From: Opitutales bacterium
Lineage (GTDB): Bacteria > Verrucomicrobiota > Verrucomicrobiia > Opitutales > JABSRG01
Length of the DNA: 64,000 bases
Reading direction: 5' to 3'
NCBI GenBank assembly: GCA_013215165.1
Contig: JABSRG010000003.1
Span: forward strand, 17,794 to 81,793
Made by a program: the position numbers and the translations under genes
In this document: one piece after another, positions 1,191-16,398 of the stretch
Layout: every line of letters starts with the position of its first letter
How positions within the stretch are numbered: the stretch's first letter is position 1
Notes under the pieces: model-generated
The model's input: only the letters and a program-made list of their open reading frames with translations
The model's database searches: none
What the model was told of the DNA's origin: nothing

Positions 1191-1195
1191 TAGTT

Positions 1196-2116
1196 ATGGC
1201 CTCCCCTCATACCCAGACGAATTCAATCCCAGTCGATACACTGAGTGCCGAGAAAGGCAAGGCTAAGGCGTTTTTCGAGCTTACGAAACCGCGTCTTAGC
1301 ATGATGACGGTCATTACTGCAATCGTCGGATATATGCTCGCCGACCCACAGCGAAGTGGATTTGCGCTGCTTGGGTTGATTTTAGGTACTACTTTCTCCG
1401 CGGGAGGCGCGGCGGCCCTCAACCAGTGGTGGGAGCGCGCGAGTGATGCGCTTATGGCACGGACTCGAGGCCGCCCTATCCCAGCCGGCGTGATCTCGCC
1501 CGAGGCTGCGCTCATTTTTGGGATAACCATCAGCCTCTTAGGTGTAGGAGCATTGTGGTGGATAAACAACTGGCTTGCCGCACTTCTATCCGCCGCGACC
1601 ATTGGACTTTACGTTTTCGTCTACACCCCGATGAAACGCTGGTCATCGTGGAACACTGCTGTGGGCGCGATCCCTGGTGCCATTCCGCCACTCATTGGGT
1701 GGGCTGCGGCTGAGGGGGCTATAGGGTTGATGGGATGGATTCTCTTTGGGATTATCCTCTTTTGGCAAATTCCCCACTTCATGGCGATTGCTTGGACTCA
1801 TCGAAAGGATTACGCCGCGGCTGGATATCGTATGGTCACCACCGATGAGCCGTCAGGCCGTAGTGCAGCTGTCCAATCCTTTGTCTGCACCGTGCTTTTA
1901 GTAGGGGTTACGCTCACTCCGGTGTTTTTGGGATTTGCAAGTTGGTTTTATGGTGCGGCTGCTCTCTTAGGTGGAGCCCCGTTCATGGTATTTGCCACGC
2001 AGTTCTTGCGACATGAGCCGCGTGACATGGCTGCGAAAAAGCTCTTTTTCACCTCCATTTCCCATTTACCCCTAGTTTTGTCCGCACTGGTGCTGGATGT
2101 CTGGATCTTGGGCTAG
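1196..2116 (+). CDS. ctaB: protoheme IX farnesyltransferase (heme O synthase)
   Basis: 306-aa UbiA-type prenyltransferase. Motifs NQWWERASDALMARTRGRP and FWQIPHFMAIAW match CyoE/CtaB. Lies 5 nt after ctaA. Confidence 0.9.
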   Translation: MASPHTQTNSIPVDTLSAEKGKAKAFFELTKPRLSMMTVITAIVGYMLADPQRSGFALLGLILGTTFSAGGAAALNQWWERASDALMARTRGRPIPAGVISPEAALIFGITISLLGVGALWWINNWLAALLSAATIGLYVFVYTPMKRWSSWNTAVGAIPGAIPPLIGWAAAEGAIGLMGWILFGIILFWQIPHFMAIAWTHRKDYAAAGYRMVTTDEPSGRSAAVQSFVCTVLLVGVTLTPVFLGFASWFYGAAALLGGAPFMVFATQFLRHEPRDMAAKKLFFTSISHLPLVLSALVLDVWILG

Positions 2117-2121
2117 TTGCC

Positions 2122-2577
2122 ATGGACTGGTTGACGACACTTCCTGCCATCAACGCCTGCCTGAATGGGGTGTCGACGCTATTGCTGACAGCTGGCTTCG
2201 TGTTCATAAAGAAAGATCAGAAAAAGGCGCATCGTGCCTCGATGGTGAGCGCATTCCTCGTTTCTGCCGTATTTTTGGCGCTTTACTTGACCCACAAGAG
2301 CCTCAAAGCGAGCAGCGGCCAGGATGTGAACACGAGCTTTGCAGGAGAAGGTTTTTGGCGGCCCGTCTATTATACAATGCTGATTACACACGTCATCTTA
2401 GCGATGGCTATGGTGCCGATGATTTTTAGGACGTTCTTTTTGGCATTCAAAGAACGCTTTGAGAGCCACAAAAAGTGGGCCCGGATCACCTTTCCAATCT
2501 GGTATTATGTAAGCATCACGGGTGTCTTGGTCTATTTTTTCATTTATCAGTGGTTCCCTCACCCAGAGAGCCCCTAA
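2122..2577 (+). CDS. DUF420-family membrane protein, commonly linked to cta/SCO clusters
   Basis: 151 aa with 4 predicted TM helices. The N-terminal pattern LPAINACLNGVSTLLLTAGFVFIKK..KAHRASM resembles DUF420. Position inside the cta cluster supports the call. Confidence 0.7.
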   Translation: MDWLTTLPAINACLNGVSTLLLTAGFVFIKKDQKKAHRASMVSAFLVSAVFLALYLTHKSLKASSGQDVNTSFAGEGFWRPVYYTMLITHVILAMAMVPMIFRTFFLAFKERFESHKKWARITFPIWYYVSITGVLVYFFIYQWFPHPESP

Positions 2578-2725
2578 CGATCTATTTCACAACCTTATCT
2601 GAGCCCAGACTCTCATTAGTTTAACTGATTCATAGCGAAAGACTTAACTCTAAAGCGTAATAAAAATCTTAACTAGCATCGATCCATTGACAGTACGGGC
2701 CGTTAGCAGCGAACTTTATGCAGAC

Positions 2726-4009
2726 ATGAGCCTTCCATCCTCATCTTCATGGAAACCTATCTTCAAGCGCATTACGTTTAGCCTATTCGCGATTGCGGCC
2801 CTACTCGGGATGACCGGCTGCGATTTTAAAGGGCGCATGTCGACGTTTGACCCGAAAGGCCCCATCGCCGAAATGCAGCTGGAGATCTTTTATATCACCG
2901 TTTGGGTGACACTTTTTCTCTTTATCGCAGTCGGCGGGGCGCTTTTATATGCGGTCTGGAAATTCCGCGAAACCCCTGAGAATAAAAACGATCCAATTCC
3001 GCGAGTCGGTCACGGAAATCCGTTGATTGAAGTGGGGTTGATCGCCGCCTCGATCCTCATGCTCGTCATCATCGCCGTCCCCACGGTCCAAGTAATCTGG
3101 GAGCAGCATGAGCTTCCGGTAGATAGTGAGCGTTACCGCGAACGCTATGGCGATTACGAGCAGAACCTCCTTGGAAATTGGTATGATGGGGACATCGCAG
3201 ATGGTGAAGAGGATGAAGTGCTAGTTATCAAGGCCTATGGTTGGCAATGGTGGTGGTCATTTGAGTATCCACAGCTCGACGGTGTGGTGACTGCAAACGA
3301 GATGGTTATTCCTAGAGGCAAGGTCGTGAAAATCGAACTGCGCTCGAAAGACGTGATTCATTCCTTTTGGCTTCCCAAGATTGCTGGGAAAGTCGACTTG
3401 ATGCCGGGGCGTGTGAACTGGATGTGGATTCAAGCGGACGAGCCAGGTTATTATTACGGACAGTGCGCCGAGTATTGTGGCGATTCGCACGCCTATATGT
3501 TGTTTCGTGCAGAGGTAGTGGAACCCGATGAGTTCGAAACCTGGATCGACCGCCAGCAGCGCACGATTGAAGCTCCCGAAGGCTACGATACGTGGGGAGC
3601 TTGGTTGGGAGCTACAAACCAGGATGAGTCCTTGGCTAATACACCCTTCCTCAAGGGAGCCAAAGCCTACTTCGCGAATAATTGTTCTTACTGCCACGCC
3701 ATCAATGACATGTCTATGGGTAACATCGCTCCGGACCTCACCAACGTGAAGGATAGGAAGTCTCTGGCTGCTGGATGGATGGAAAACGTGACTGCAGACA
3801 ACCAAGTTGACGTCCCCAAGCAGTATGAAAACTTGGTTGAATGGATCTTCCATTCTGACCAAGTAAAACCGGGTAATTTGATGTATTACCCTTCCCAGGG
3901 ATTGATTAACTATATCAACCCACCTCTCGGCGATGATGGTCAGCCGATACGCACACCGATGACCCTCGAAGACGCGGAAAATATCGCGACCTTCCTTCAG
4001 GAAATCTAA
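2726..4009 (+). CDS. ctaC: cytochrome c oxidase subunit II with fused C-terminal c-type cytochrome (caa3 type)
   Basis: CuA motif CAEYCGDSHAYM, the WQWWWSFEYP segment, and a C-terminal haem-c site CSYCH. A lipobox-like LLGMTGC sits near the N-terminus. The ORF track starts at TTG 2687; I prefer ATG 2726, but the start is uncertain. Confidence 0.9.
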   Translation: MSLPSSSSWKPIFKRITFSLFAIAALLGMTGCDFKGRMSTFDPKGPIAEMQLEIFYITVWVTLFLFIAVGGALLYAVWKFRETPENKNDPIPRVGHGNPLIEVGLIAASILMLVIIAVPTVQVIWEQHELPVDSERYRERYGDYEQNLLGNWYDGDIADGEEDEVLVIKAYGWQWWWSFEYPQLDGVVTANEMVIPRGKVVKIELRSKDVIHSFWLPKIAGKVDLMPGRVNWMWIQADEPGYYYGQCAEYCGDSHAYMLFRAEVVEPDEFETWIDRQQRTIEAPEGYDTWGAWLGATNQDESLANTPFLKGAKAYFANNCSYCHAINDMSMGNIAPDLTNVKDRKSLAAGWMENVTADNQVDVPKQYENLVEWIFHSDQVKPGNLMYYPSQGLINYINPPLGDDGQPIRTPMTLEDAENIATFLQEI

Positions 4010-4033
4010 AAGCCAGACAGAAAGTATTTTCAA

Positions 4034-6061
4034 ATGAGCACTACGACCGTAGAAACCCCAGAAAAGACTGAGCTCGTTTTTGAGCCATCGACGGCTCAAG
4101 AGAGTAACCTCGGACTGCGCCGTCCGGACTTCACCAAAGGCTTGGTAGATTGGATGACCACCGTAGACCACAAGAAGATCGGTATCCTCTACCTGTTTGC
4201 GGGAATATTCTTCTTTATAGTTGGTGGGATTGAGGCGCTTTTAATTCGCGTCCAGTTGGCCCAGCCAATGAATGATTTCATAACGGCTCAGCAATACAAT
4301 CAGCTGTTTACGATGCATGGGACGACGATGATCTTTCTCGCAGTCATGCCGATGAGCGCGGGGTTTTTCAATTATCTCATCCCCCTTCAGATTGGCGCTC
4401 GGGACGTTGCTTTCCCTAGACTCAACGCTTTTAGCCTCTGGTGTTTTATCGGAGGCGCTATCGTATTGAACATCTCCTTTCTCTTCCAGTTCTTGCAGTA
4501 TGCTGGTGTGGATTGGTTCAATATCACTGTAAATCGCGAAGGATATGGTGATTACACCCTGACTGATATTGTTCCTGGCATGGGTTGGTTTGCCTATGCT
4601 CCATTAAGTAATGATGGCTACTCGGGAATCGGTTCAGACTTTTGGATTTTTGGTCTTCAAGTGCTGGGAATCGCCTCGCTAGCCGCTTCGTTTAATTTCA
4701 TCACGACGATCCTGAACATGCGTGCTCCCGGGATGAAGATGATGCGCCTGCCGGCATTCACATGGATGACGCTCATCACCGCTTTCCTCATCATTTTTGC
4801 CTTCCCAGCGATCACGATTGCCTTGGCAGAGCTGATGTTTGACCGGACATTTGGCACCAATTTCTTCCGGGTGGAAGAGGGCGGACAGCCTATCCTTTGG
4901 CAACACCTCTTCTGGGTCTTTGGCCATCCAGAAGTATACATCTTGGTGCTACCCGCTATGGGAATCGTTTCTGAGATCTTACCTACATTTTCTCGCCGTC
5001 CCCTATTCGGTTACCCCATCATCGTCTTTTCAGGCGCAGTCATTGGTTTCCTCGGCTTTGCGGTATGGTCTCACCACATGTTTACAACCGGACTGGGCAA
5101 AATAGCGACCGCAGCATTTTCTCTTCTGACCATGGCTATTGCGGTCCCGACTGGCGTGAAAATCTTTAATTGGATCGGGACTCTCTGGCAGGGGCGCATC
5201 CGCTTTACTGCCCCCATGGTTTTTGCCCTCGGCTTCATCTGGATGTTTATGATGGGTGGATTTTCCGGGATCATGCACTCGGCGGCGCCTGCCGATGCTC
5301 AGCAACAAGACAGTTATTTTGTGATCGCGCACTTCCACTACGTTTTGATCGGTGGAGTAGTCCTTGCGCTCTTGGGAGGCATCTATTTTTGGCTGCCCAA
5401 GATGTTTGGTAAGATGTGGACCGGCAATCTCGGCTATTGGTCTGCTCTGCTGGTGAACATTGGCCTAAATGTCACCTTTTTCCCGATGCATTTTCTCGGA
5501 TTGCTTGGCATGCCACGCCGGACTCATACCTATCTTGAAGGTAATGATTGGGGCTCGTTAAACTTGATCTGTTCCATCGGCGCGTTCGTGTTGGCTTTCG
5601 GAGTATTAATCTTCCTCATCGATATTTTCCTTCTGGTTAAGAAGGGTAAACCCGCAGCGGATGATGCTTGGGGTGAAGGACGCACATTGGAGTGGTATAC
5701 ATCATCGCCTCCCGCTGTGCACAACTTTGACGCTACTCCAGAAGTTCAGGCACGCGATGCTCTTTGGGCTCACAAACACGATGGTCCGAAATATCAGATC
5801 AAAGACATCCCAGAGCCGCATGGTGTGCATATGCCTTCCCAGTCCTGGTGGCCTTTCTTCGGGGCTTTGGGCCTGACCATCATGGCGACTTCTATGTCAC
5901 TCCATGCCGCAGATCTCCTTCACAGTTTCGGCTGGCTCGCCATCTTTGGCTTGGGAATGACCGTTGTGTCCGTATTCCTTTGGGCGCTTGAAGGTCCCGG
6001 AGGTTTCCACATCCATTTCAAGAAGTCCGGAGCCTCTGAACAGAGCCAACTCCAGCACTAA
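4034..6061 (+). CDS. ctaD: cytochrome c oxidase subunit I
   Basis: 675 aa with canonical haem-copper oxidase motifs (LFWVFGHPEVYILVLP, WSHHMFTTG, HFHYVLIGG). It also has a C-terminal two-helix extension of about 110 aa, as seen in Bacillus/Thermus caa3 enzymes. Confidence 0.95.
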   Translation: MSTTTVETPEKTELVFEPSTAQESNLGLRRPDFTKGLVDWMTTVDHKKIGILYLFAGIFFFIVGGIEALLIRVQLAQPMNDFITAQQYNQLFTMHGTTMIFLAVMPMSAGFFNYLIPLQIGARDVAFPRLNAFSLWCFIGGAIVLNISFLFQFLQYAGVDWFNITVNREGYGDYTLTDIVPGMGWFAYAPLSNDGYSGIGSDFWIFGLQVLGIASLAASFNFITTILNMRAPGMKMMRLPAFTWMTLITAFLIIFAFPAITIALAELMFDRTFGTNFFRVEEGGQPILWQHLFWVFGHPEVYILVLPAMGIVSEILPTFSRRPLFGYPIIVFSGAVIGFLGFAVWSHHMFTTGLGKIATAAFSLLTMAIAVPTGVKIFNWIGTLWQGRIRFTAPMVFALGFIWMFMMGGFSGIMHSAAPADAQQQDSYFVIAHFHYVLIGGVVLALLGGIYFWLPKMFGKMWTGNLGYWSALLVNIGLNVTFFPMHFLGLLGMPRRTHTYLEGNDWGSLNLICSIGAFVLAFGVLIFLIDIFLLVKKGKPAADDAWGEGRTLEWYTSSPPAVHNFDATPEVQARDALWAHKHDGPKYQIKDIPEPHGVHMPSQSWWPFFGALGLTIMATSMSLHAADLLHSFGWLAIFGLGMTVVSVFLWALEGPGGFHIHFKKSGASEQSQLQH

Positions 6062-6080
6062 TTAAAATCTTTTGCTTGCT

Positions 6081-6734
6081 ATGAGCCACGCTGCAACGCT
6101 TACCCTCGATGATGGTCACAACGACCACCATGATGGCCATCATGCGCCCACGAATACGGGCGTCGATAACAAGAAATTGGCCATGTGGCTGTTTCTAGGG
6201 TCGGACTGTATGTTCTTTGGAACACTGATCTCCACCCACCTGATCTACCGTAAGCTTTACCCAGACACCGGGGTGCAGCCGACTGATATTTTCAATATAG
6301 CCCTCACGTCTTTCTCGACGTTCATCCTGCTGATGAGCTCATTCCTGATGGCTTTGTGCGTATCAGCGATGCACAAGGGCGACTTGAAAAGTTTTCAGCG
6401 CAATGTAGTTGGTGTCGCGTTTTTCGGACTGATTTTTTTGACCTGCCAGGTGTTTGAGTTCAGTGAGTTTGTCTACGGAATCCCCGGGAAGTTTGAGGGC
6501 TTTACCCTGTCCTCGGGAACTTTTGGATCTACCTTTTTCGTGATGACCGGCACGCATGGCGTGCACGTAGCGATCGGTATTCTCTGGTTGCTGGCTCTGT
6601 TTTTTTACTCGTTCTCGGGGCGTATGACCCACGCAAGCGCGATGGATGTCGAGGTTTCTGGGCTTTACTGGCACTTCGTCGATATCGTCTGGATCGTTAT
6701 CTTCACCGCCGTTTATCTCATCGAATTTATATAG
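6081..6734 (+). CDS. ctaE: cytochrome c oxidase subunit III
   Basis: Polytopic protein ending in the subunit III signature GLYWHFVDIVWIVIFT. It has a His-rich N-terminus (DDGHNDHHDGHH). The ORF track starts at TTG 6072; ATG 6081 is preferred. Confidence 0.9.
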   Translation: MSHAATLTLDDGHNDHHDGHHAPTNTGVDNKKLAMWLFLGSDCMFFGTLISTHLIYRKLYPDTGVQPTDIFNIALTSFSTFILLMSSFLMALCVSAMHKGDLKSFQRNVVGVAFFGLIFLTCQVFEFSEFVYGIPGKFEGFTLSSGTFGSTFFVMTGTHGVHVAIGILWLLALFFYSFSGRMTHASAMDVEVSGLYWHFVDIVWIVIFTAVYLIEFI

Positions 6735-6737
6735 ACC

Positions 6738-7154
6738 ATGGCTACCACAGCAAGCGAACTGACTTTGGCCCCAATGGACGTTCTCAAAAGTGAGAACGAT
6801 AAGTATCACACGTTCATTAATCTGGGGATGATCCTGGCGGTCCTGACCGGGATCGAAATTGTCGTGATTTTCTTTCCGTGGAACGAGGCCCTTATCCTGT
6901 GGGGCCTGATTATTCTATCGGTAATCAAGTTTATCGCGGTGATCGCCTGGTTCATGCACCTGATTTATGACAAAGCGGTATTGACGGTCTTGTTTATGTC
7001 GGGGTTTGTCATTGCGACAGGGACTGTAATCGCACTGGTGGCTTTATTTAGCTACACGGGGGATGAATACGATATCGAGGCCATGAATGAAAGTGTCTTT
7101 GAAGTGCCGGTGGCCCCTCCTCTACCTGAGGGAGCGAAGGCGGGGCATCATTGA
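6738..7154 (+). CDS. ctaF: cytochrome c oxidase subunit IV (prokaryotic COX4-like small subunit)
   Basis: 138-aa protein with 3 TM helices, immediately after ctaE (3-nt gap). Position and size fit bacterial subunit IV. No strong motif was seen. Confidence 0.6.
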   Translation: MATTASELTLAPMDVLKSENDKYHTFINLGMILAVLTGIEIVVIFFPWNEALILWGLIILSVIKFIAVIAWFMHLIYDKAVLTVLFMSGFVIATGTVIALVALFSYTGDEYDIEAMNESVFEVPVAPPLPEGAKAGHH

Positions 7155-7179
7155 TCGCTCCGAACTCCATTTATTTTAA

Positions 7180-7209
7180 GGCTCTGATGGAAAATCAGAG
7201 CCTTTTTTA
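7180..7209 (+). terminator. rho-independent terminator after ctaF
   Basis: Perfect 9-bp stem GGCTCTGAT / ATCAGAGCC with loop GGAAA, followed by TTTTTT. Confidence 0.7.
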
Positions 7210-7223
7210 TTTCACTGATTCCT

Positions 7224-7997
7224 GTGCAGCTTCACTGGCATACTGAACCTTTCTTAATCATATCCATCCTAGGGGTAGCCTGGCTCTACACCTTGCTGAT
7301 GGGACCCTTGCGCAGTCGTTTTTCGGGTGCGCCTGAGCGTATGCCATGGACGGCCTACAATTGTTTCCAAACCGGCCTGGCGCTGGCCTATATTTCTGTC
7401 GCCTCGCCCCTGGATCAGATCGGGGAACAGTTTCTGTTTTCGGCGCACATGGTGCAACACATGATTTTGGTCTATGTTTGCCCTCCATTAATGATTTATG
7501 GCCTACCGTGGTGGCTGGTAGACCCACTGTTTCGGGTTAAAGGCCTAGGGTTAGTCTTCAGGAAGCTTTTTCATCCCCTCGTTGGAGGTATGACCTTTAG
7601 TACGGTTTATACGGTCTGGCACATCCCGCTTCTCTATGAGATGGCTCTACAGGATAAAACCATACACATCATCGAGCATCTCACGATGTTTGGGACAGGA
7701 TGGATGATGCTGTGGATGGTCTTTTCCCAGTCCAAAGAGATCCCTATCAGCAATCCAGGGGTGCGTATGATCGGAGTGTTCCTGCTTATGGTCGCTCAAC
7801 TGCCAGTGTTTGCCTTTCTTACTCTTTCGGATGCGGTTCTGTATCCTACTTACGATTGGGCTCCACGGATCATTCCAGGGTTTGAAGCATTGCCAGACCA
7901 GATTCTCGGCGGCGTCATTATGAAGATCAGCAACATGGTCTTTTCGCTCTCAGTATTTGCCTACGCCTTCTTTACCTGGGCAAAACACGAGAGTTAA
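7224..7997 (+). CDS. ctaG: cytochrome c oxidase assembly factor CtaG (caa3_CtaG family membrane protein)
   Basis: 257-aa polytopic protein. The motif SAHMVQHMILVYVCPPLMIYGLPWW matches the caa3 CtaG family. GTG start. Follows the oxidase genes as in Bacillus. Confidence 0.75.
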   Translation: MQLHWHTEPFLIISILGVAWLYTLLMGPLRSRFSGAPERMPWTAYNCFQTGLALAYISVASPLDQIGEQFLFSAHMVQHMILVYVCPPLMIYGLPWWLVDPLFRVKGLGLVFRKLFHPLVGGMTFSTVYTVWHIPLLYEMALQDKTIHIIEHLTMFGTGWMMLWMVFSQSKEIPISNPGVRMIGVFLLMVAQLPVFAFLTLSDAVLYPTYDWAPRIIPGFEALPDQILGGVIMKISNMVFSLSVFAYAFFTWAKHES

Positions 7998-8011: not shown

Positions 8012-8037
8012 GGAACCGTGCTATTTGCTCTATGTCT
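8012..8037 (+). promoter_or_regulatory. candidate ECF-type promoter (GGAAC-N17-GTCT) upstream of the ECF sigma gene
   Basis: GGAAC at 8012-8016 and GTCT at 8034-8037 with a 17-nt spacer, about 70 nt upstream of the sigma start. This is pattern-level only. Confidence 0.3.
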
Positions 8038-8110
8038 TTTAACCTATTATGCCACCCAGATTTTGCCTTTGCACGTTGGCCTAAAGCATGCACTGTAACG
8101 CGATTGATTT

Positions 8111-8743
8111 ATGGCTAGCGTATTGCCCAGCAAATTGACAACAGCCCGGACCGTGGTGGCCAAGGAGACCAATGCGGATCGCGAGGCTGCATTGGTGCGC
8201 CGTGTCCAAGAGGGTGATGTCCGGGCTTTCGATTCGCTGGTGCTAAATAATCGCGAGCGCTTATTCTCTATCGTTTACAATCTGACTTCCAATCGGGAGG
8301 ATGCGGCAGATCTGACCCAGGAAGCGTTTATAAAGGCCTTTCGCTCTATCCACAATTTCAAGGGTAAATCTTCGTTTTACACGTGGCTTTATCGCATTGC
8401 CGTCAACACGGCTTACAGCTACCTCAAAAAGCACCGCTGGAAGCGTTTCTTCTCTCTTGAGAATATCAATGAAGAAGGGGCGGCGGCTGATATCATCGAG
8501 AAACTCACTGCTGCCAACAAAACCGAAAAGCCTGCCATGATGGCGGAGCTGCAGGAAAAATTGAACGAAGCGCTTCAATCTCTGTCTTTGAAACATCGCA
8601 CTGTGATCACGCTTTTTGAAGTCGAGGGCCTGAGCCACCAGGAGATAGCCGAAATCGTCGGCTGCTCTGAGGGGACTGTCCGGTCACGTCTCCATTATGC
8701 CAAACAAGAACTTCAAGGGATTCTGAAAGATTATCTCGGATAA
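8111..8743 (+). CDS. ECF-family RNA polymerase sigma factor (sigma-70 regions 2 and 4)
   Basis: Region 2 pattern (LFSIVYNLTSNREDAADLTQEAFIKAFRSIHNFKGKSSFYTWLYRIAVNTA) and region 4 HTH (LSHQEIAEIVGCSEGTVRSRLHYAKQEL). Confidence 0.9.
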   Translation: MASVLPSKLTTARTVVAKETNADREAALVRRVQEGDVRAFDSLVLNNRERLFSIVYNLTSNREDAADLTQEAFIKAFRSIHNFKGKSSFYTWLYRIAVNTAYSYLKKHRWKRFFSLENINEEGAAADIIEKLTAANKTEKPAMMAELQEKLNEALQSLSLKHRTVITLFEVEGLSHQEIAEIVGCSEGTVRSRLHYAKQELQGILKDYLG

Positions 8744-8750
8744 AGCGACT

Positions 8751-9338
8751 ATGCCAGAACGCACTTCAGCTGAGACCAGCCAAGACCTGACATTGGAAGA
8801 GTTGCTCCGACTCAAAAAGCACGAGCAACCTGATCCTTCTTTTTGGGAGTCATTCGAGACCGAATTAAAAGCGCGGATGGTGCGGGAACTGGTTAAGAAA
8901 CCCTGCCCCAGAGAGCGCCTATCAGCAGCTATTTCATTTTTCCTCACACGCTTATTGCCTGCATCGGGGGCTGTCGCTGCCCTGTTGCTTGCCCTGTTTC
9001 TTCAGTCGGGTTCAGGCTGGACCTCTGCCCTCTTGCTCGAATCTGCTTCGCCGACATTGGACGGGATACAGGCTGTTTCTCAAAATGAGCCTGGCGCGAC
9101 TGAGTCTTCTTTTGCAAACCAAGGATCATCTATGGACACGGCAGCTCTCCTCGCTGCATCCGATTTCGCGGTCGATATAATTTCTAGCCCTCAGGCTGAT
9201 CGAGAGGCTAGCTACAAAACCGATTTTCTCCCCGATGTTCTTGCTTCCCAAAATACGGAACGTGCTTCGTATACGGAGGATGTGATATCAGTTAATTTGG
9301 CTTCGATATCGCCCGCATCCTTCATTTTGGGAATGTAG
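8751..9338 (+). CDS. putative single-pass membrane anti-sigma factor
   Basis: Starts 8 nt after the sigma gene. It has a short cytoplasmic N-terminus, one TM helix (LLPASGAVAALLLALFL) and an extracytoplasmic tail. No zinc (HxxxCxxC) motif. The call rests on position and architecture only. Confidence 0.5.
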   Translation: MPERTSAETSQDLTLEELLRLKKHEQPDPSFWESFETELKARMVRELVKKPCPRERLSAAISFFLTRLLPASGAVAALLLALFLQSGSGWTSALLLESASPTLDGIQAVSQNEPGATESSFANQGSSMDTAALLAASDFAVDIISSPQADREASYKTDFLPDVLASQNTERASYTEDVISVNLASISPASFILGM

Positions 9339-9369
9339 CTTTAGAGACAAGCCCTCCCCCTGTGTTGTT

Positions 9370-10611
9370 GTGCAATTTTGTCGAATAAATGTCTGCGTAA
9401 CACTCTTTCTCGTCTCCCTGACATTTGCATCCAAGCTTGCCGCAGAGACGGAGTTCCTAGCCCTGCAGAAGCGGGTCACAGATATCTACGAAAGGTATTC
9501 CGATGCTGTTGTGCGGGTAAAAGCCTACAGCAAGGTAGCTGATGCTGATGCAGGCGCCGAAGGCGTGAGGATTTCCGTCAAAATCGGCTCGGGCTTTTTT
9601 ATCAGCAACGAGGGGCTCATCCTCGTAAATGCAAGCCGCGTCGCCGATGCTGAACGCGTAGTAATTGAACATCGAGGAACGGATTATCTGGCAAATATTG
9701 TAGGGATGGATGAACAGATAAACGTGGCTCTCCTCAAAGCTGAGTTTCTCCCGGATGAGTTTGAATTTATTCGTATGAACGACGCCACACAGCTCCCGTC
9801 CACAGGGACTCTGGCGGTGAGTATTTCCTGCCCCTTTACGTTCTCGCCTGCGCCCCGTCTGACCATGGTTGTCGGTCAGGATACAAAATTTCTCCAGAGA
9901 CTTTTTCCTACGACATATTTACGCGTGGACCATCAATTGAGCAAAGGAGAAGGCGGTGGCCCGATCATCGACCTGCAAGGGCGTTTAATCGGGATGCTGA
10001 TTGTCTCGATACAGGAGACGGTCGCCTCTTACGCACTCCCGGCACGCGCCATAAACAAAGTAAAGGATGACCTCTTGCTTGAGGGACGGGTCGTCTATGC
10101 CAGCGTGGGAGTCGAAGTCGAACAACACTCGCTGCGCGGCGGCGAATCAAGGGTCATTGTCAAAGCGGTAAATCCAGAGTCGCCCGCCGATCTTGCGGGG
10201 ATTATCCCCGGAGATATCGTGCAGCGTGTCGGCGATTACTCTATAAATGATATCAGCGATTTCCCGAATGCCATGTTCTTCATCCGCGTCGGCGAGTTCG
10301 TCACCTTTGAGTTGGATCGTGACGGGACTGCGATGGAGATGAATATGCAGACTGTGGTACGTCCCAGTGATGAGCCGTTCATCGAGATCAAACCACTGAC
10401 GCGACAAGAGGCAGAGTTGCTTGTCGAAGATGCATCAGGATCTGAAACTTCCGAAAAACCTGAGCAGCCTCAGGATGAACCTGGTATGCCAGAGCCAAAG
10501 CCGGAAGTAAAAGGTGATGAAGCGACTTCCACCACCACAATAGAAGAGATACCTGACGCGTTTTCAGTGGATAAGGACAAGCCAGGCCCCGTATTGGCGA
10601 TCGAAGAATGA
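9370..10611 (+). CDS. HtrA/DegS-like trypsin-fold + PDZ protein with a substituted catalytic triad (pseudoprotease)
   Basis: Signal peptide, then the HtrA core GSGFFISNEGLILVN. The triad positions read VNASRV (Ser for His), INVALLK (Asn for Asp) and GEGGGP (Gly for Ser). A PDZ-like segment follows (VIVKAVNPESPADLAGIIPGDIVQRVGDYSIND), then an acidic low-complexity tail. GTG start. Confidence 0.8.
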   Translation: MQFCRINVCVTLFLVSLTFASKLAAETEFLALQKRVTDIYERYSDAVVRVKAYSKVADADAGAEGVRISVKIGSGFFISNEGLILVNASRVADAERVVIEHRGTDYLANIVGMDEQINVALLKAEFLPDEFEFIRMNDATQLPSTGTLAVSISCPFTFSPAPRLTMVVGQDTKFLQRLFPTTYLRVDHQLSKGEGGGPIIDLQGRLIGMLIVSIQETVASYALPARAINKVKDDLLLEGRVVYASVGVEVEQHSLRGGESRVIVKAVNPESPADLAGIIPGDIVQRVGDYSINDISDFPNAMFFIRVGEFVTFELDRDGTAMEMNMQTVVRPSDEPFIEIKPLTRQEAELLVEDASGSETSEKPEQPQDEPGMPEPKPEVKGDEATSTTTIEEIPDAFSVDKDKPGPVLAIEE

Positions 10612-11045: not shown

Positions 11046-11876
11046 CTAGTAACTATGCACCGCATCGCCTTGACCCACGATGTCTCCAAAAGCGTCGAGG
11101 ACATCATACTCTGCCGGAACCCAATGACGATGGTCCACCCATTCATAACCTCTTGTGTAAAATATGCGCAGGAACACGATCCCGTTTTCAGGAACGTCCA
11201 CATAGTGGCCTTGTGACTCTTCTTTGTGGCCCACACCCTGCCTAATCCAGGCGCGATTGGGAGTATTTACACTGGGTTTGTAGAAACCATAGAGCCCTTT
11301 GCGGCTGCGGCTTTCAAATCGATATAATTCCTTCCCTTCGAAATTTGTGATAACATCCTCTGCACCATCTTGGTAGATAATAAGAGGATTATCGTAGCCG
11401 ACTATCCTCTTATCCTGCGGGATTATTACCCGTCCAGATGCGCTCTCCTTGATTCCATAAACCCCAGAATTTCGACGTGCTATAGGTTCGACGTCAGGTG
11501 GCCGGGTGATGAGGCGCAGGGTGGATGCTGAGAAACCGAGCCTTTCCAAATAGTCTGTTCGCCGTGCTCGCTCGGCCTTAGCTTGAGACTCTTCGATAAA
11601 CCATCCGTTCATTTCGAAATTGTAGCCTTGCACCTGGATATTCTCATCTTCGAGGCGCGCTTGAAGGCGTGTACTCAAGCGGTCTGTCGGTTGCACGCCA
11701 TCGAACAGAGCCTCAACTGATGTGAAGTCTTCGGCGTATACTTCGGTCAGATAAGCCGTCTTTGCTGATTGAGACCAAGCCAAGGCGAATCCGAAATAGG
11801 TGCGCTCAGAAGCACCCAGAGTGGCTGTGAAAAGGATCGGCAACGCAGATAAAAGGAATAGTTGGACGCTGTTCAT
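11046..11876 (-). CDS. secreted protein of unknown function (shared N-terminal module + WG-like beta repeats)
   Basis: Signal peptide. The N-terminal ~100 aa is paralogous to the upstream gene (YFGFALAWS ... NGWFIEESQAKAERARRTDYLERL). The C-terminal part has KWG-like repeats (GVYGIKESASGRVIIPQDKRIVGYD, GLYGFYKPS). Its start overlaps the upstream stop by 4 nt. Confidence 0.7.
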   Translation of the reverse strand: MNSVQLFLLSALPILFTATLGASERTYFGFALAWSQSAKTAYLTEVYAEDFTSVEALFDGVQPTDRLSTRLQARLEDENIQVQGYNFEMNGWFIEESQAKAERARRTDYLERLGFSASTLRLITRPPDVEPIARRNSGVYGIKESASGRVIIPQDKRIVGYDNPLIIYQDGAEDVITNFEGKELYRFESRSRKGLYGFYKPSVNTPNRAWIRQGVGHKEESQGHYVDVPENGIVFLRIFYTRGYEWVDHRHWVPAEYDVLDAFGDIVGQGDAVHSY

Positions 11877-12901
11877 TCGCTGGATTCGTTCGCTTTCTTA
11901 GTTGCCTGCTCGATGCGTAACTTGATGTTGTGCAGAATGTTATCGGATATACCTTTGACTGTGAAAGGGTCCACCCGATCGAGCCATGATGCTTCCCAGA
12001 TGGTGCTATCGTGGATATTGGGGATATTCAGATCTTTGAAAAACTGGTCGACCTCCGCGTTCTCAAACGTATCAGTGAGGGTGGTGAGCTTCTGGGTGCG
12101 GAATGGGAAAAACATTTTGCCTTCCCAGCGATCGACCGGCGTCGTTGCTACCTTCATATCATCTAACAGCTCATCGAGTTTTGATGGTGCCGGCGTGTAG
12201 ACGTTGAAGATGACATCCATGTGTTGTCCACCTTTCACGATAGTGATGGGAAATTTCATGAAGCGGCGCATGTCATTACGACTCAGTTGTTCGCGAGTGG
12301 GTTGTTCCCAATAGACCTCTTCAATGACCAAAGGGCCGTATTCAGCTTTCAAATAAGGATAGCCGAAAAATGAGAACTGGGCTCGGCAGGTGATGCGCCC
12401 GGTTATGACAAGGCCACCCGTCGTAATGCTGAATTCGCGTGTATCACGAAAAGTTGGTATTAAGCTGCCTTGCTGGATCTCGCGAGTTTTGCCAATGATT
12501 CCCCCAAAGCGCTCTGTTACCGTATATTTGATTCTGTCTTCTAAGTAGCTTTTGCGTCTAGCTCGTTGAGCCTCGGCTTGCGGCCGCGAATCATACCAGC
12601 CGACAATTTCAGCATGATTCCAAGCCGTTTTACGCATGTCTGGCTCGTGGATCAAGGTGTCGCCCCATGACTGTAGTAAGCTTGCTCGTGTGCCCGCGTC
12701 GGCGTCCAGGGTCGCCGTGGGCACTACGGGAAGTGTGAAGATTTCGGATACCACGGCTTGTTGGTCTCGGTCTGACCATGCTAAGGCGAAGCCATATTGA
12801 AGTGTGTAGTCGGCACCCGCCGTAATCGGTTGGGCGATGGCGAAAGGCATGCTCAGGGCGCACATAGCTAGAGAAAGGACTCGGGGAATAAATCGCTTCA
12901 T
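11873..12901 (-). CDS. secreted protein of unknown function (shared N-terminal module)
   Basis: Signal peptide (ALSMPFAIAQ). The N-terminal module (QYGFALAWS ... VGWYDSRPQAEAQRARRKSYLEDRI) is paralogous to 11046-11876. The C-terminal ~220 aa has no recognisable motif. Confidence 0.7.
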   Translation of the reverse strand: MKRFIPRVLSLAMCALSMPFAIAQPITAGADYTLQYGFALAWSDRDQQAVVSEIFTLPVVPTATLDADAGTRASLLQSWGDTLIHEPDMRKTAWNHAEIVGWYDSRPQAEAQRARRKSYLEDRIKYTVTERFGGIIGKTREIQQGSLIPTFRDTREFSITTGGLVITGRITCRAQFSFFGYPYLKAEYGPLVIEEVYWEQPTREQLSRNDMRRFMKFPITIVKGGQHMDVIFNVYTPAPSKLDELLDDMKVATTPVDRWEGKMFFPFRTQKLTTLTDTFENAEVDQFFKDLNIPNIHDSTIWEASWLDRVDPFTVKGISDNILHNIKLRIEQATKKANESSE

Positions 12902-12918
12902 TGGCTTGAATCAAAATA

Positions 12919-13335
12919 TCAGTAGCCCTCGCCGCCGCTGATGGATCGGCCGTTTTCATCCAATACCCGATAGACAACGGGGCAATTTCGGTCGTCAAAA
13001 GCCTCGTTTCCGGAATCCAATAGAATCATACGCACAAGGCAGCCGCGCTCGGGCACATAGACATAGCGGCGTTGTGTGCGCCCCACATCAGTAAACACAT
13101 ATAGTTCATCCAGATCACTGCCCGGCGTGATGGCAAAGGCGAATTCAGATTCAGCGACGGGTTCGCCTAGACGGTTCCAGGCGACTAAGCGGTTGTTCTT
13201 CCCATCTTTACCAGTAATTACAGGACCTAAGAATTGCCAGATCGTATACTCGGGCTGTATCACAATTCTGCCCGTAGATTGATTGCGCACACCCTGTTTA
13301 CCGGACTCTCCGAAAACCTCAAAATCCTGGTCCAA
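12919..13335 (-). CDS. small protein of unknown function with a WG-like repeat; non-ATG (TTG) start
   Basis: 138 codons. The only available start is TTG at 13335, and it overlaps the end of the upstream gene by 17 nt. No signal peptide. GKQGVRNQSTGRIVIQPEYTIW resembles a WG beta repeat. Confidence 0.55.
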   Translation of the reverse strand: MDQDFEVFGESGKQGVRNQSTGRIVIQPEYTIWQFLGPVITGKDGKNNRLVAWNRLGEPVAESEFAFAITPGSDLDELYVFTDVGRTQRRYVYVPERGCLVRMILLDSGNEAFDDRNCPVVYRVLDENGRSISGGEGY

Positions 13336-14092
13336 GGCTAAAGGTCTTGCGGCTTGTCTCAGCCTGCAGGCTCACCTTGAGCTGAGCGAATCTCGAATTC
13401 CCTGCAGATCGCGCCACACGCTCCTCCCAACTTTCATGGATCCATACTGCATAGTCATAGGCCTCCCTGTCGCGAATCATGTAGGGCATGACGCGGTTCA
13501 CATCCTTCAACAGTGTGATCATTTGAAGGGTGTCCTCGCGAAATTGGCCGCCCGCCTCTTTGTAGCGCGGAAGCACTTCAGAGAGACAGTGATCGATCAG
13601 CACGCGTTCGTTTCCATACTCAGCTGCCCAGAACCACGTATCATTAGAAAGGGGAACGTTTTCCAAAAGCCATGTTTGCCAGGTCTCCGATGGAATCAAA
13701 TGCGCTTCAGAGGTGGGGCCTCCCCACTCAATAATGCTTTCCAGCGCGGCCTTTTCGGTGCCCGCTGCGTCCCAAGAGTCAAAGGACCCACGTAGATCAT
13801 CATAACGCGCTCGTGCTTTCTCCCAAGACGCTAAGTCCATGACTGCCGCGCGCTCATACTGGAGTGCTAAAAAATCGATCCATTTGGCAAAGGAGGGGTC
13901 TTTAGCCGTCATCTCCGCCGTATCCCGCTGCAACGCCGAGGCCACTGTCTTAGGACCGGCCAGCCTATTGCGCCACCGCTCGAGCCCAGCCTCAATACGA
14001 GCATCGGCTGGAAGCAACGCCTGCGCAAACGCATCCGAAATCCCCAAAATCGGCCATAAAACCAACCCCATACAGCAAACTAAAGCCTTCAC
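13319..14092 (-). CDS. secreted, probably alpha-helical protein of unknown function
   Basis: 257 aa with a signal peptide (LVLWPILGISDAFAQA). GTG start 56 nt downstream of tRNA-Arg on the same strand. First gene of the four-gene cluster. Confidence 0.65.
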   Translation of the reverse strand: MKALVCCMGLVLWPILGISDAFAQALLPADARIEAGLERWRNRLAGPKTVASALQRDTAEMTAKDPSFAKWIDFLALQYERAAVMDLASWEKARARYDDLRGSFDSWDAAGTEKAALESIIEWGGPTSEAHLIPSETWQTWLLENVPLSNDTWFWAAEYGNERVLIDHCLSEVLPRYKEAGGQFREDTLQMITLLKDVNRVMPYMIRDREAYDYAVWIHESWEERVARSAGNSRFAQLKVSLQAETSRKTFSLGPGF

Positions 14093-14279: not shown

Positions 14280-15446
14280 TCACATGGGGTGGCGGAGGCA
14301 GGCGCAGGTGCCGCCGTCGGGCATAGGCTCGAGGGTGATGTCGCCACCTAGGCTGCGGGCGGAGTGACGGGCTACAGAGAGGCCCATGCCGCAGCCGACG
14401 TGGGTTTTTGTCGATACAAAGGGCTCAAAGAGGGTGTCTTCCACTGAGGCTTCGACGCCTGAGCCTTGGTCGATCACTTTTATCAGGCAAAATCTTTGGT
14501 CAGTTATGTCGACGACATCAAATTCGATTTGGACTGTCCGCGGTCCGCTGTGGCTGGAGGGATAGGCCTCGTAGGCATTGTGCATCAGCGCCACGAGGAT
14601 GGTCTCAAAGATTTCGCTGTTCGCGTTGAGTGTGATCTCACTGAGGTTTTCCGCTATTACGAAATCGGCATTCAGTGGCATCTGTTTGTGATGTTCGGCA
14701 AAGCGTTCTGTCGCTTTTCTTATGAGCCGGTCGAGCTTGATGGGTGTCAGCTCAATGCGATCTATGTCGGAGAGGCTGGAGAGCTGACGCACGATATCGA
14801 CGACGCGTCCGACGGCTTTGTCCATGAGGCCCACGCTGCGTTCGATGAGCTGGGGGTTTTGCAGACCGGTTTTCATTAGGTCGAGGTAGCCCACGACGAC
14901 GCCGAGGAGGTTGTTTAAATTGTGAGCGATCCCTTGGGTGATAGCGCCTACAGCTGCTTTGCGTCGGGCCTCGGAAAGGCGGTTCTGTAGGTCGATATTC
15001 TCGCGAAAAATCTGCTGAAACCTGAGCTGAGTGTGGACGCGTGCGAGGGTTTCATCGAGGTCAATCGGTTTAGTGATGTAGTCGATGGCCCCAGCGTCCA
15101 AGCCTTCGATCTTACCTTCTTTAGTCGATTTTGCGGTGATGAAAATGACTGGGATTGATTCGGAGCGCGGATCCGATTTTAGGCGCTGGCAGGTCTCGAT
15201 GCCGTCCATTTCGGGCATCATGACATCGAGGAGGATCAGGTCGGGAATCTCTTTTTTGACGAGATCCAGGCATTCATAGCCGGTACGCGCCACCATGACT
15301 TTGAAGTTATGTCGCTCGAGTTTGCGCTGAAGTAGGCGAATGTTTATAGGTTGATCGTCGACCACCATGATCTTTGAGCCCGCAAAGGGAGAAGGTTGCG
15401 CTTCGAGCGGGTTTCTAATCAGTGGCGTGGAGGCAGTGGGATCCAT
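14280..15446 (-). CDS. hybrid response regulator / histidine kinase (N-terminal REC, then HisKA + HATPase)
   Basis: REC domain (KIMVVDDQPINIRLL ... DLILLDVMMPEMDG ... TAKS). H-box ITQGIAHNLNNLLGVVVGY. ATPase G-boxes (DQGSGV, GCGMGLSVAR). Confidence 0.85.
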   Translation of the reverse strand: MDPTASTPLIRNPLEAQPSPFAGSKIMVVDDQPINIRLLQRKLERHNFKVMVARTGYECLDLVKKEIPDLILLDVMMPEMDGIETCQRLKSDPRSESIPVIFITAKSTKEGKIEGLDAGAIDYITKPIDLDETLARVHTQLRFQQIFRENIDLQNRLSEARRKAAVGAITQGIAHNLNNLLGVVVGYLDLMKTGLQNPQLIERSVGLMDKAVGRVVDIVRQLSSLSDIDRIELTPIKLDRLIRKATERFAEHHKQMPLNADFVIAENLSEITLNANSEIFETILVALMHNAYEAYPSSHSGPRTVQIEFDVVDITDQRFCLIKVIDQGSGVEASVEDTLFEPFVSTKTHVGCGMGLSVARHSARSLGGDITLEPMPDGGTCACLRHPM

Positions 15447-15513: not shown

Positions 15514-16398
15514 TCATCCTTTCGCTTGGCGCGCGAGCATAGCTTCGAAGGTGTTTCTCATTAGGATAGAGACCGTCATGGGGCCGACCCCGCCGGGAAC
15601 GGGGGTGATCTTTGAGGCGATCTGTGAGACCGATTCGAAATGCACGTCACCGGCGATCCTATATCCGCGTTTTTTCGAGGCGTCAGGGATGCGATTAACG
15701 CCGACGTCGATGACCACGGCGCCAGGCTTTACCATGTCCGCGGTAACGAATTCTGGCTTACCAATTGCGGCAACAAGGATGTCGGCTGAGCGGGTGAAAT
15801 CGGCCAGATTTTGTGTGCGTGAATGGCAGGTGGTGACGGTGGCGTTGCCTGTGGGTGACTTTTGAATAAGGAGCTGGGCGACGGTCTTTCCTACAATGAG
15901 AGATCGTCCAAGGACTACCGCGTGTTTGCCGCTGGTTTCCACGCCTGAGCGTTTCAATAGTTCCATGATTCCCGACGGGGTGCAGGACACACGAGCGTTG
16001 GGATCTTCTTGTGCGATGAGACCCAGGTTTTGGGCATTGAAGCCGTCGACGTCTTTCTCCGGGGATACGAGGTTGAATATGTATTGCTCGTCAATGTGTG
16101 CACCCATGGGGCTCTGAACGAGAATGCCGTCCACTGAGTCGTCGGTATTGAGGCGCATGACGTGTTCAGCGAGTGCTTCTTGGGAAATGTCCTCAGGATA
16201 TACTTCGAGCGAGGCGTTCATGCCTAGTTTTGCCGCGGTGAGTTCTTTTTTTCTCACGTAGGATACCGATGCTGGGTCTTCCCCGACTCGGACGAATACG
16301 ACATGCGGTGGACGGCCGTCATGTGCTTCGATCCGGGCTTTTAGTTCATGAATAATATCTTGGGCGACTTGGTTTCCGTCGATGATTTCGGCAGGCAT
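15514..16398 (-). CDS. folD: bifunctional methylenetetrahydrofolate dehydrogenase / methenyl-THF cyclohydrolase
   Basis: 294 aa. Motifs VGEDPASVSYVRKK, GILVQSP, GRSLIVGKTVAQLL and PVPGGVGPMTV are diagnostic of FolD. Confidence 0.95.
   Translation of the reverse strand: MPAEIIDGNQVAQDIIHELKARIEAHDGRPPHVVFVRVGEDPASVSYVRKKELTAAKLGMNASLEVYPEDISQEALAEHVMRLNTDDSVDGILVQSPMGAHIDEQYIFNLVSPEKDVDGFNAQNLGLIAQEDPNARVSCTPSGIMELLKRSGVETSGKHAVVLGRSLIVGKTVAQLLIQKSPTGNATVTTCHSRTQNLADFTRSADILVAAIGKPEFVTADMVKPGAVVIDVGVNRIPDASKKRGYRIAGDVHFESVSQIASKITPVPGGVGPMTVSILMRNTFEAMLARQAKG

Follow-up and report, generated by a model that had tools for sequence, protein, structure and literature searches.

The window analysed here, a 64,000-nucleotide stretch of contig JABSRG010000003.1 from a bacterium of the order Opitutales (phylum Verrucomicrobiota), harbours a module of three co-oriented and tightly spaced genes (8111-10611 on the plus strand in the list of open reading frames, ORFs), the third of which encodes a protein of the HtrA/DegS type with all three residues of its catalytic triad replaced. 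By analogy with known operons, we interpret the module as an extracytoplasmic function (ECF) sigma/anti-sigma/HtrA operon with a seemingly obligate pseudoprotease, paired in Verrucomicrobiota with what may be a new family of anti-sigma factors. In the textbook view of the envelope-stress response, DegS-type proteases degrade an anti-sigma factor in a regulated manner, and the module represents a natural and widespread variant of this theme, in which the DegS-like component is predicted to lack catalysis yet is strictly linked to a sigma/anti-sigma pair. It therefore offers a route to study PDZ-based sensing without cleavage, be it by a protector, a decoy or an adaptor. The three genes are as follows.

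8111..8743, plus strand: ORF1, ECF (group IV) sigma factor of 210 amino acids, RpoE-like but not an RpoE equivalog (Pfam, TIGR02937, TIGR02939)
8751..9338, plus strand: ORF2, candidate anti-sigma factor of 195 amino acids with one transmembrane helix, from a previously unannotated family (no Pfam or NCBIfam match)
9370..10611, plus strand: ORF3, predicted HtrA/DegS-like pseudoprotease of 413 amino acids, GTG start (Pfam, AlphaFold2, Foldseek)

The stop codon of ORF1 is separated from the start of ORF2 by 7 nucleotides, and that of ORF2 from the start of ORF3 by 31 nucleotides. An initial annotation, made from the letters of the window and a list of its ORFs, had described this stretch as an operon for an ECF sigma factor, a single-pass membrane protein and an exported protein with a trypsin fold and a PDZ domain, and the ORFs, Pfam matches and hydropathy agree with that description. 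Pfam matches of ORF1 (Sigma70_r2, 1.8e-20; Sigma70_r4_2, 3.6e-16; and Sigma70_ECF) cover regions sigma-2 and sigma-4 only, and a score of 125.7 bits against the sigma70-ECF model TIGR02937 (cut-off 42.9) places the protein among ECF sigma factors. The best specific model is that of RpoE (TIGR02939), the score of 157.8 bits being below the equivalog cut-off of 236.15.

Loss of the catalytic triad in the HtrA-like protein

ORF3 matches the Pfam domains Trypsin_2 (5e-14) and PDZ_2 (9e-11, residues 246-325) and starts with a hydrophobic segment (residues 3-24) representing a signal peptide or a membrane anchor. Its AlphaFold2 model, with a mean predicted local distance difference test score (pLDDT) of 84.9 and a predicted template modelling score of 0.74, consists of a protease-like domain (residues ~47-238) followed by a PDZ domain (~248-327) and by a tail that is disordered, the pLDDT falling below 50 at residues 339-342, 357-375 and 379-400. 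A Foldseek search with this model retrieved DegP, DegQ, DegS, AlgW and MucD at E-values of about 1e-24, with target-normalised TM-scores of at most 0.86. The HMMER matches, the model and the Foldseek result are thus in line with the previous view that the trypsin fold and the PDZ domain are both retained. The positions of interest in ORF3 are listed below, the triad columns having been located by phmmer alignment to solved DegP-like and DegQ chains and by MAFFT alignment with intact-triad homologues.

9634..9636, plus strand: codon AGC, Ser89 at the catalytic His position (LVNASRV aligned to LTNNHVV)
9721..9723, plus strand: codon AAC, Asn118 at the catalytic Asp position (QINVALLK aligned to SDVAVLK)
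9952..9954, plus strand: codon GGC, Gly195 at the catalytic Ser position (GEGGGP aligned to GN[S/A]GGP)
10099..10359, plus strand: PDZ domain, residues ~244-330
10375..10608, plus strand: low-complexity tail, residues ~336-413, acidic, rich in Glu and Pro, predicted to be disordered

The replacements His to Ser, Asp to Asn and Ser to Gly are those already noted by eye in the initial annotation, which had named a proper alignment beforehand as the test that could overturn its claim; the alignments and the structure model alike show Ser, Asn and Gly where the triad residues would be. In addition, the MAFFT alignment reveals that the L2 loop, following the nucleophile strand, is seven residues shorter than in active homologues. 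Of the features that define HtrA (S1C) proteases, ORF3 possesses the trypsin-like fold and the PDZ domain (at least one being expected) and lacks the His-Asp-Ser triad. Its scores against the curated families Do (TIGR02037, 118.9 bits, cut-off 416.2) and DegS (TIGR02038, 85.9 bits, cut-off 422.95) are below both cut-offs. The PDZ domain keeps its carboxylate-binding loop (S245-V246-G247-V248), with G247 being invariant in all alignments. The sequence thus predicts an HtrA fold devoid of proteolytic activity. In the window's clade, this tail terminates with a semi-conserved IP.LSP...GP.P motif; shorter members of the family (~320-350 amino acids) lack the tail altogether.

The loss of the triad is a property of a whole family. 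A protein identical to ORF3 is encoded by an independent metagenome contig (P0001), and seven homologues with 46-56% identity, coming from Verrucomicrobiota/Opitutales metagenome-assembled genomes and from TARA Oceans contigs, all lack the triad. A family profile built from ORF3 homologues and searched against 1.84 billion cluster representatives (50%-identity clusters) recovered 3,080 proteins at E <= 1e-30; among the best 150 matches, ranks 1-106 are all without an intact triad and ordinary H-D-S HtrAs appear only from rank 107 on. The commonest pattern at the three positions is S-N-G, others being T-N-G, S-N-S, A-G-I, E-G-Q and H-D-G, and the individual residues vary further (S, N, G, T, A or I for His; N, G, K or S for Asp; G, S, A, I, V, E or Q for Ser). 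Motifs that are invariant in active HtrAs (TNxHV, AIGxPxG, IQTDA and GNSGGPL) are degenerate across 146 family members, whereas the PDZ motifs (the carboxylate-loop Gly, PA..AG, GD and a conserved Arg) are conserved equally well in the dead family and in active HtrAs. The reading frame of the ORF3 family is intact across very divergent genomes. These sequence patterns argue for selection for a non-catalytic role, and the family shares a degenerate triad and a retained fold with pseudoproteases of the MamO type. MamO and other HtrA-family pseudoproteases of magnetotactic bacteria, as passages of PMC4794232 describe them, have degenerate triads and non-catalytic roles and arose repeatedly after duplication, MamO being an activator of MamE. 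No fusion of an anti-sigma factor with an HtrA was found among the top 150 family members, the N-terminal extensions being signal peptides and low-complexity linkers.

In a neighbour-joining tree (capped distances, triad columns left out, bootstrap on a thinned set), 146 of the 148 dead sequences form one clade without any active member, with a moderate bootstrap support of 41 out of 59 replicates. The H-D-G lineage is nested deep in this clade, and sequences retaining Ser are scattered through it. The remnants of the triad thus differ from branch to branch, which suggests, as far as the weakly supported tree can be relied upon, that the triad decayed repeatedly and in parallel after a shift of function. 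The H-D-G pattern, with His and Asp kept and the nucleophile alone lost (GGEGGSP), occurs in locus L006 (4839-6026) and in protein P0103; other lineages have kept Ser and lost His and Asp (S-N-S, T-N-S).

Members of the family are entered in public databases as 'serine protease Do', 'S1C family serine protease' or 'PDZ domain-containing protein'. The first two names are erroneously attached to at least about 135 sequence clusters and are likely to distort inventories of the metabolism and the proteases of Verrucomicrobiota and Armatimonadota. A separate set of trypsin-like proteins of ~665-725 amino acids (L034 5880-7889, L044 1442-3436, L045 4800-6980 and L048 725-2722) carries Tyr in place of the nucleophile (P[QAV]NYGGPL) and non-canonical residues in place of His and Asp; judged by these residues, it may represent a further family of pseudoproteases. 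None of these four loci yielded a sigma homologue.

The association with a sigma/anti-sigma pair is as consistent as the loss of the triad. At every locus with enough flanking sequence, sampled from ~17 sequence-distinct lineages of Verrucomicrobiota and Armatimonadota, the dead HtrA gene is preceded by genes for an ECF sigma factor and a protein of 150-280 amino acids with one transmembrane helix, the genes of the module often being a few nucleotides apart or overlapping. The module is present at the following loci.

Window's clade: L001/L004, L002, L003, L049-L051
More distant Verrucomicrobial lineages: L005-L011, L052-L054, L056-L059
Hot-spring contigs (NCBI name 'S1C family serine protease [Armatimonadetes bacterium]'): L012-L032
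Further locus: L036

The outer flanks are unrelated between loci, including a cox operon in the window, genes for polysaccharide export together with accD/folC, polyprenyl synthase, fumarase and others elsewhere, and the three-gene module is therefore a conserved unit. A lack of synteny between orthologues and ECF sigma genes had been put forward as a finding that would speak against the initial annotation; at every locus examined, the genes of orthologues and of distant family members alike come after those of an ECF sigma factor and a membrane protein, while the flanks vary. In four Armatimonadetes loci (L012, L013, L015 and L029), two modules occur in tandem. The first combines sigma1 and a zf-HC2 anti-sigma factor with a dead HtrA (E-G-Q); the second, located ~1 kb beyond the end of the dead HtrA gene, combines sigma2 and a zf-HC2 anti-sigma factor with an H-D-S HtrA. 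This pairing of a dead and an active form, which recalls MamO and MamE, is absent at L014.

The candidate anti-sigma factor and its C-terminal signature

Neither ORF2 nor any of 13 homologues has a match in Pfam or NCBIfam (the Pfam scan of the 14 sequences was run at a permissive threshold), and all homologues are named 'hypothetical protein' in databases. Assignment of ORF2 to the class I anti-sigma factors with a zf-HC2 or RseA_N domain was considered and rejected, no such domain being recognisable and hhalign against HxxxCxxC anti-sigma factors giving a probability of 0.3. The protein has one transmembrane segment (residues 68-86, 8952..9008 on the plus strand), with the Kyte-Doolittle maximum for 19 residues (1.87) at residue 68. 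Eleven Lys/Arg residues precede this segment and three follow it, indicating a single-pass protein with the N-terminus inside and the C-terminus outside. Two parts of the protein are of special interest here.

8787..8858, plus strand: conserved cytoplasmic motif LTLEELLRLKKHEQPDPSFWESFE, residues 13-36, presumed sigma-binding region
9309..9335, plus strand: C-terminal tail SPASFILGM-COOH, proposed PDZ ligand

In the cytoplasmic motif (L..LL.LK..E.P...F), the columns L18, L19, L21, K22, E25, P27 and F35 are invariant among 14 divergent homologues. The structure model of ORF2 is of low confidence (pLDDT 48); it has helices at residues 15-23 and 29-49, and no structure or folded domain is predicted for the periplasmic tail (residues 86-195), so there is no evident sensor domain within ORF2. 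The tail is poorly conserved among the Verrucomicrobial homologues and rich in Ser, Ala, Thr and acidic residues. At all Verrucomicrobial loci examined, the ORF2 family sits between the sigma and the dead HtrA genes, and the equivalent protein in the Armatimonadetes and L036 modules has a canonical HxxxCxxC (zf-HC2) anti-sigma N-terminus. ORF2 has what is generally expected of a membrane anti-sigma factor, i.e. a gene directly following that of the sigma factor, a single-pass topology with the N-terminus inside and a conserved cytoplasmic N-terminus. By position, topology and analogy, it is thus a candidate anti-sigma factor, and the analogy points to its family as a putative new anti-sigma family in Verrucomicrobiota. 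The N-terminal motif is present twice in the candidates of three loci (L005 4298-4990, L010 336-1031 and L011 4283-4984), the copies in this lineage being DDLRRLLAMKRAERP... and FPALRRLLSLKRYEHP..., which suggests that the presumed sigma-binding element has been duplicated within the gene.

The very C-terminus of the anti-sigma candidates exhibits a signature that accompanies the dead HtrAs, as apparent from the endings found in the individual lineages.

F[IR]LGM or LKFGM: window's clade
RETAY: L006
SRL[AT]F: L007-L009
AS[FL]NY: L005, L010 and L011
SSRSF: L052
SHNYF: L054
GPAQF: L056
EATSF: L058
EGKYF: L059
[IV]GSF or ICSF: Armatimonadetes
VRASF: L036
EASFSF: P0259 (protein match)
AKASL: L057

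A terminal Phe, Tyr or Met is thus found in 12 of the 13 lineages, the base rate of F, Y, M or W as the last residue being 0.15 among long ORFs from the same DNA. The signature spans both types of anti-sigma factor, that is, the new Verrucomicrobial family and the canonical HxxxCxxC proteins of Armatimonadetes. In a well-sampled subfamily of 154 amino acids, conservation of the periplasmic part is highest over the last 18 residues, and all 64 sequences terminate with Phe. Two distinct anti-sigma factors encoded beside intact-triad HtrAs on Armatimonadetes contigs end with ...KPNKTSQ and ...MVEIQR. Binding of the PDZ domains of DegS and AlgW to C-terminal aromatic residues (e.g. YxF) of unassembled outer-membrane proteins is described in passages of PMC8103513 and PMC8545111. 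The initial annotation had proposed that ORF3 may serve as a PDZ-based ligand sensor, a protector of the anti-sigma factor or an adaptor for another protease, and the case for these putative roles is strengthened by the aromatic or hydrophobic ends that are conserved among the anti-sigma candidates.

Possible functions of the module and its relation to known systems

The interpretation that we tentatively favour, with a probability of roughly 0.45, is that a non-catalytic DegS-like partner holds the tail of the anti-sigma factor via its PDZ domain and thereby controls proteolysis of the tail. ORF2 would keep the ECF sigma factor at the membrane through its short cytoplasmic helical motif, and ORF3, as a presumed non-catalytic descendant of DegS-type proteases, would bind the cognate anti-sigma factor by its periplasmic tail, the hydrophobic or aromatic C-terminus of which would be capped by the PDZ domain. 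Bound ORF3 would set the access of real proteases to the tail and would thus behave as a co-anti-sigma factor or a sensor, combining a logic similar to that of RseB, which shields RseA from site-1 cleavage (according to passages of PMC8103513 and PMC8545111), with a scaffold similar to that of DegS. Exposed C-termini of unassembled envelope proteins, typically ending with Phe, might compete for the PDZ domain, and an ORF2 tail freed in this way would undergo site-1 and site-2 cleavage, leading to release of the sigma factor.

Several points weigh against this interpretation. An anti-sigma domain is undetectable in ORF2 by Pfam, NCBIfam and hhalign, and neither promoter scans nor a comparison of upstream regions revealed a convincing autoregulated ECF promoter within the window. 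The 13 lineages with a known C-terminus comprise homologous proteins and are hence not statistically independent, one of them (L057) has a terminal Leu, and the control anti-sigma factors beside active HtrAs number only two. The binding of sigma by ORF2, the binding of the tail by the PDZ domain, the protective direction of the effect and the identity of the signal are elements that we infer, and the data, which allow either protection or promotion of cleavage, do not constrain the choice between the two.

Protease-dead variants of DegP are still chaperones (PMC11642142), so a purely downstream chaperone role of ORF3 would also be possible: the dead HtrA would be a periplasmic holdase that is co-transcribed with the sigma factor and aids envelope proteins without any regulation of the anti-sigma factor. 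Such a role would agree with the ability of engineered protease-dead HtrA/DegP proteins to keep a chaperone-like activity and to rescue stress phenotypes (PMC11642142), with degP/htrA being a classical member of the sigma-E regulon (PMC8103513) and with the retention of the trypsin-fold scaffold and the PDZ domain in ORF3. We nevertheless consider it unlikely, as the ORF3 family is DegS-like (~320-410 amino acids, a single PDZ domain) rather than of the cage-forming DegP type with two PDZ domains, its substrate-contacting loops are shortened or degenerate, its linkage to the anti-sigma gene is absolute despite the differing outer flanks, and the C-terminal signature of the anti-sigma factor accompanies the dead form and not the active one. 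Promotion rather than prevention of cleavage would be expected if ORF3 were an adaptor or activator similar to MamO, which activates MamE-dependent proteolysis (PMC4794232); the pseudoprotease would then present the anti-sigma tail to, or allosterically activate, an active protease with a gene outside the module, for example a paralogue of HtrA or a C-terminal processing protease. The intact-triad HtrA modules situated 2-3 kb from the dead ones on several Armatimonadetes contigs would suit this scenario, but some Armatimonadetes loci (e.g. L014) lack such a tandem, and an active HtrA is absent near the module both in the window and in the Verrucomicrobial loci. HtrA proteins act as trimers, which makes mixed oligomers of dead and active forms conceivable, though these are a conjecture, and on balance we find the adaptor scenario rather improbable.

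That ORF3 is still an enzyme, employing non-canonical residues, or that its substitutions are an artefact of alignment or sequencing, appears very improbable. Ser does persist as the nucleophile residue in some family members (GESG[AS]P), as do His and Asp in one lineage (H-D-G), but none of the first 106 profile matches has all three residues, and the replacing residues vary so freely that no alternative catalytic set is conserved. Three independent alignment methods and the structure model agree on the positions, and the identical protein from the independent contig (P0001) speaks against a sequencing error. A more far-reaching version of the interpretation favoured above, which we regard as somewhat unlikely, would see the module as an ancient multi-phylum 'decoy-release' sensor: the PDZ domain would cap an anti-sigma C-terminus resembling that of outer-membrane proteins, and unassembled outer-membrane proteins would displace it, triggering degradation of the anti-sigma factor and release of sigma. 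Displacement would here be competitive, unlike the peptide-driven allosteric activation of DegS. The differing remnants of the triad (H-D-G in one lineage, x-N-S in others) suggest in this view that a change of function preceded and caused the loss of catalysis.

The gene order of the module has precedents among known systems. The rpoE-rseA-mucD operon of Xanthomonas campestris and Stenotrophomonas maltophilia (PMC4229105) likewise encodes an RpoE-like sigma factor, a membrane anti-sigma factor and a periplasmic HtrA on one strand. The order of genes in algU-mucABCD of Pseudomonas aeruginosa also matches the module. MucD is a negative regulator of its pathway and an active DegP-like protease with an intact triad; its structure 8k2y is among the phmmer and Foldseek matches of ORF3. 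Unlike the product of mucD, ORF3 has a single PDZ domain and no triad, and unlike RseA and MucA, which carry a recognised anti-sigma domain, ORF2 comes from an unannotated family. Because the triad is absent, the module lacks the active HtrA protease characteristic of rpoE-rseA-mucD, in spite of the shared gene order. An ECF sigma factor, an anti-sigma factor and an HtrA-family protein are also encoded by adjacent genes in Mycobacterium tuberculosis (sigE-rseA-htrA(Rv1223)-tatB), where HtrA (Rv1223) is an active, essential protease operating in a different cell-envelope context.

DegS of Escherichia coli and AlgW of P. aeruginosa resemble ORF3 in having an N-terminal anchor, a trypsin fold and one PDZ domain, and both are among its close structural matches. 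They are, however, catalytically active and cleave the anti-sigma factor as site-1 proteases of the sigma-E and AlgU pathways, which ORF3 is predicted to be unable to do. Their genes are unlinked to the sigma operon, and the aromatic C-terminus that is relevant to them is carried by outer-membrane proteins, whereas here it is found on the anti-sigma candidate itself. RseB and MucB, the periplasmic protectors of RseA and MucA, have a fold unrelated to that of ORF3, so the resemblance would be functional only; a Pfam scan of the module found no MucB_RseB domain. MamO differs by its fusion to a TauE transporter, its di-His metal binding, its involvement in biomineralisation and the lack of a link to sigma; ORF3 has no TauE domain and scores 34 bits (E 1e-08) against the NCBIfam MamO model, the cut-off of which is 800.

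A dedicated pseudoprotease wired into an ECF module had been considered an undescribed regulatory architecture in the initial annotation. This holds for the pseudoprotease in so far as we found no description of a natural dead HtrA within an ECF module in the searchable literature: none is mentioned in a 2024 review on HtrA proteins, and the main text of the ECF re-classification paper contains no HtrA, PDZ or trypsin, its supplementary catalogue possibly listing a 'serine protease' neighbour. It does not hold for the gene order, as operons comprising an ECF sigma factor, an anti-sigma factor and an active HtrA are already known (PMC4229105); the new element is the dead protease.

Upstream and neighbouring DNA

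The initial annotation let its element start at 8012, implying an ECF promoter at this place. The motif in question, GGAACC-N17-TCTTT, was rejected as such, since it is not conserved at orthologous loci and is not enriched over chance, with seven matches at <=1 mismatch in the window compared with 4.5 expected. Another candidate lies closer to ORF1.

8060..8094, plus strand: promoter-like block ATTTTGCCTTTGCACGTTGGCCTAAAGCATGCACT, upstream of ORF1, partly conserved across orthologous loci

Comparison of upstream regions indicates that this block fits an RpoE-like promoter (AACTT as the -35 element) and a sigma-70-like promoter alike, each weakly, and a consensus promoter scan gave no plus-strand match at 8060-8094. 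In 17 Armatimonadetes loci within L012-L032, an ECF-type promoter-like motif, CGAAAC-N16-CGTCAGAC (e.g. L014 3555-3584), overlaps the 3' end of the preceding gene and ends ~7 nucleotides before the start codon of sigma1; its conservation is weak evidence, because the loci are closely related.

The neighbours of the module in the window are a caa3-type cytochrome oxidase operon that ends at 7997 and convergent minus-strand ORFs from 11046 on; a search of the whole window revealed no further HtrA-like or ECF sigma genes. The cytochrome c oxidase cluster directly upstream (153-7997, plus strand) is complete and contains the following genes.

153-1190, plus strand: CtaA
1196-2116, plus strand: CtaB/UbiA
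2687-4009, plus strand: subunit II with a cytochrome c domain
4034-6061, plus strand: subunit I
6072-6734, plus strand: subunit III
6738-7154, plus strand: small subunit
7224-7997, plus strand: Caa3_CtaG

The adjacency of this cluster to the sigma module is probably incidental, because orthologous modules have wholly different upstream genes. On the other side, four successive ORFs without a Pfam match (276, 342, 138 and 257 amino acids) occupy 11046-14092 on the minus strand and are convergent on the module. The first two are paralogous, their N-terminal domains sharing 29% identity over 113 amino acids (E 6e-10), and both have signal-peptide-like starts and a common YGFALAWS motif. Further on, 14280-15446 and 15514-16398 (both on the minus strand) encode a receiver-HisKA-HATPase_c protein that looks like a hybrid sensor kinase and adjoins FolD.

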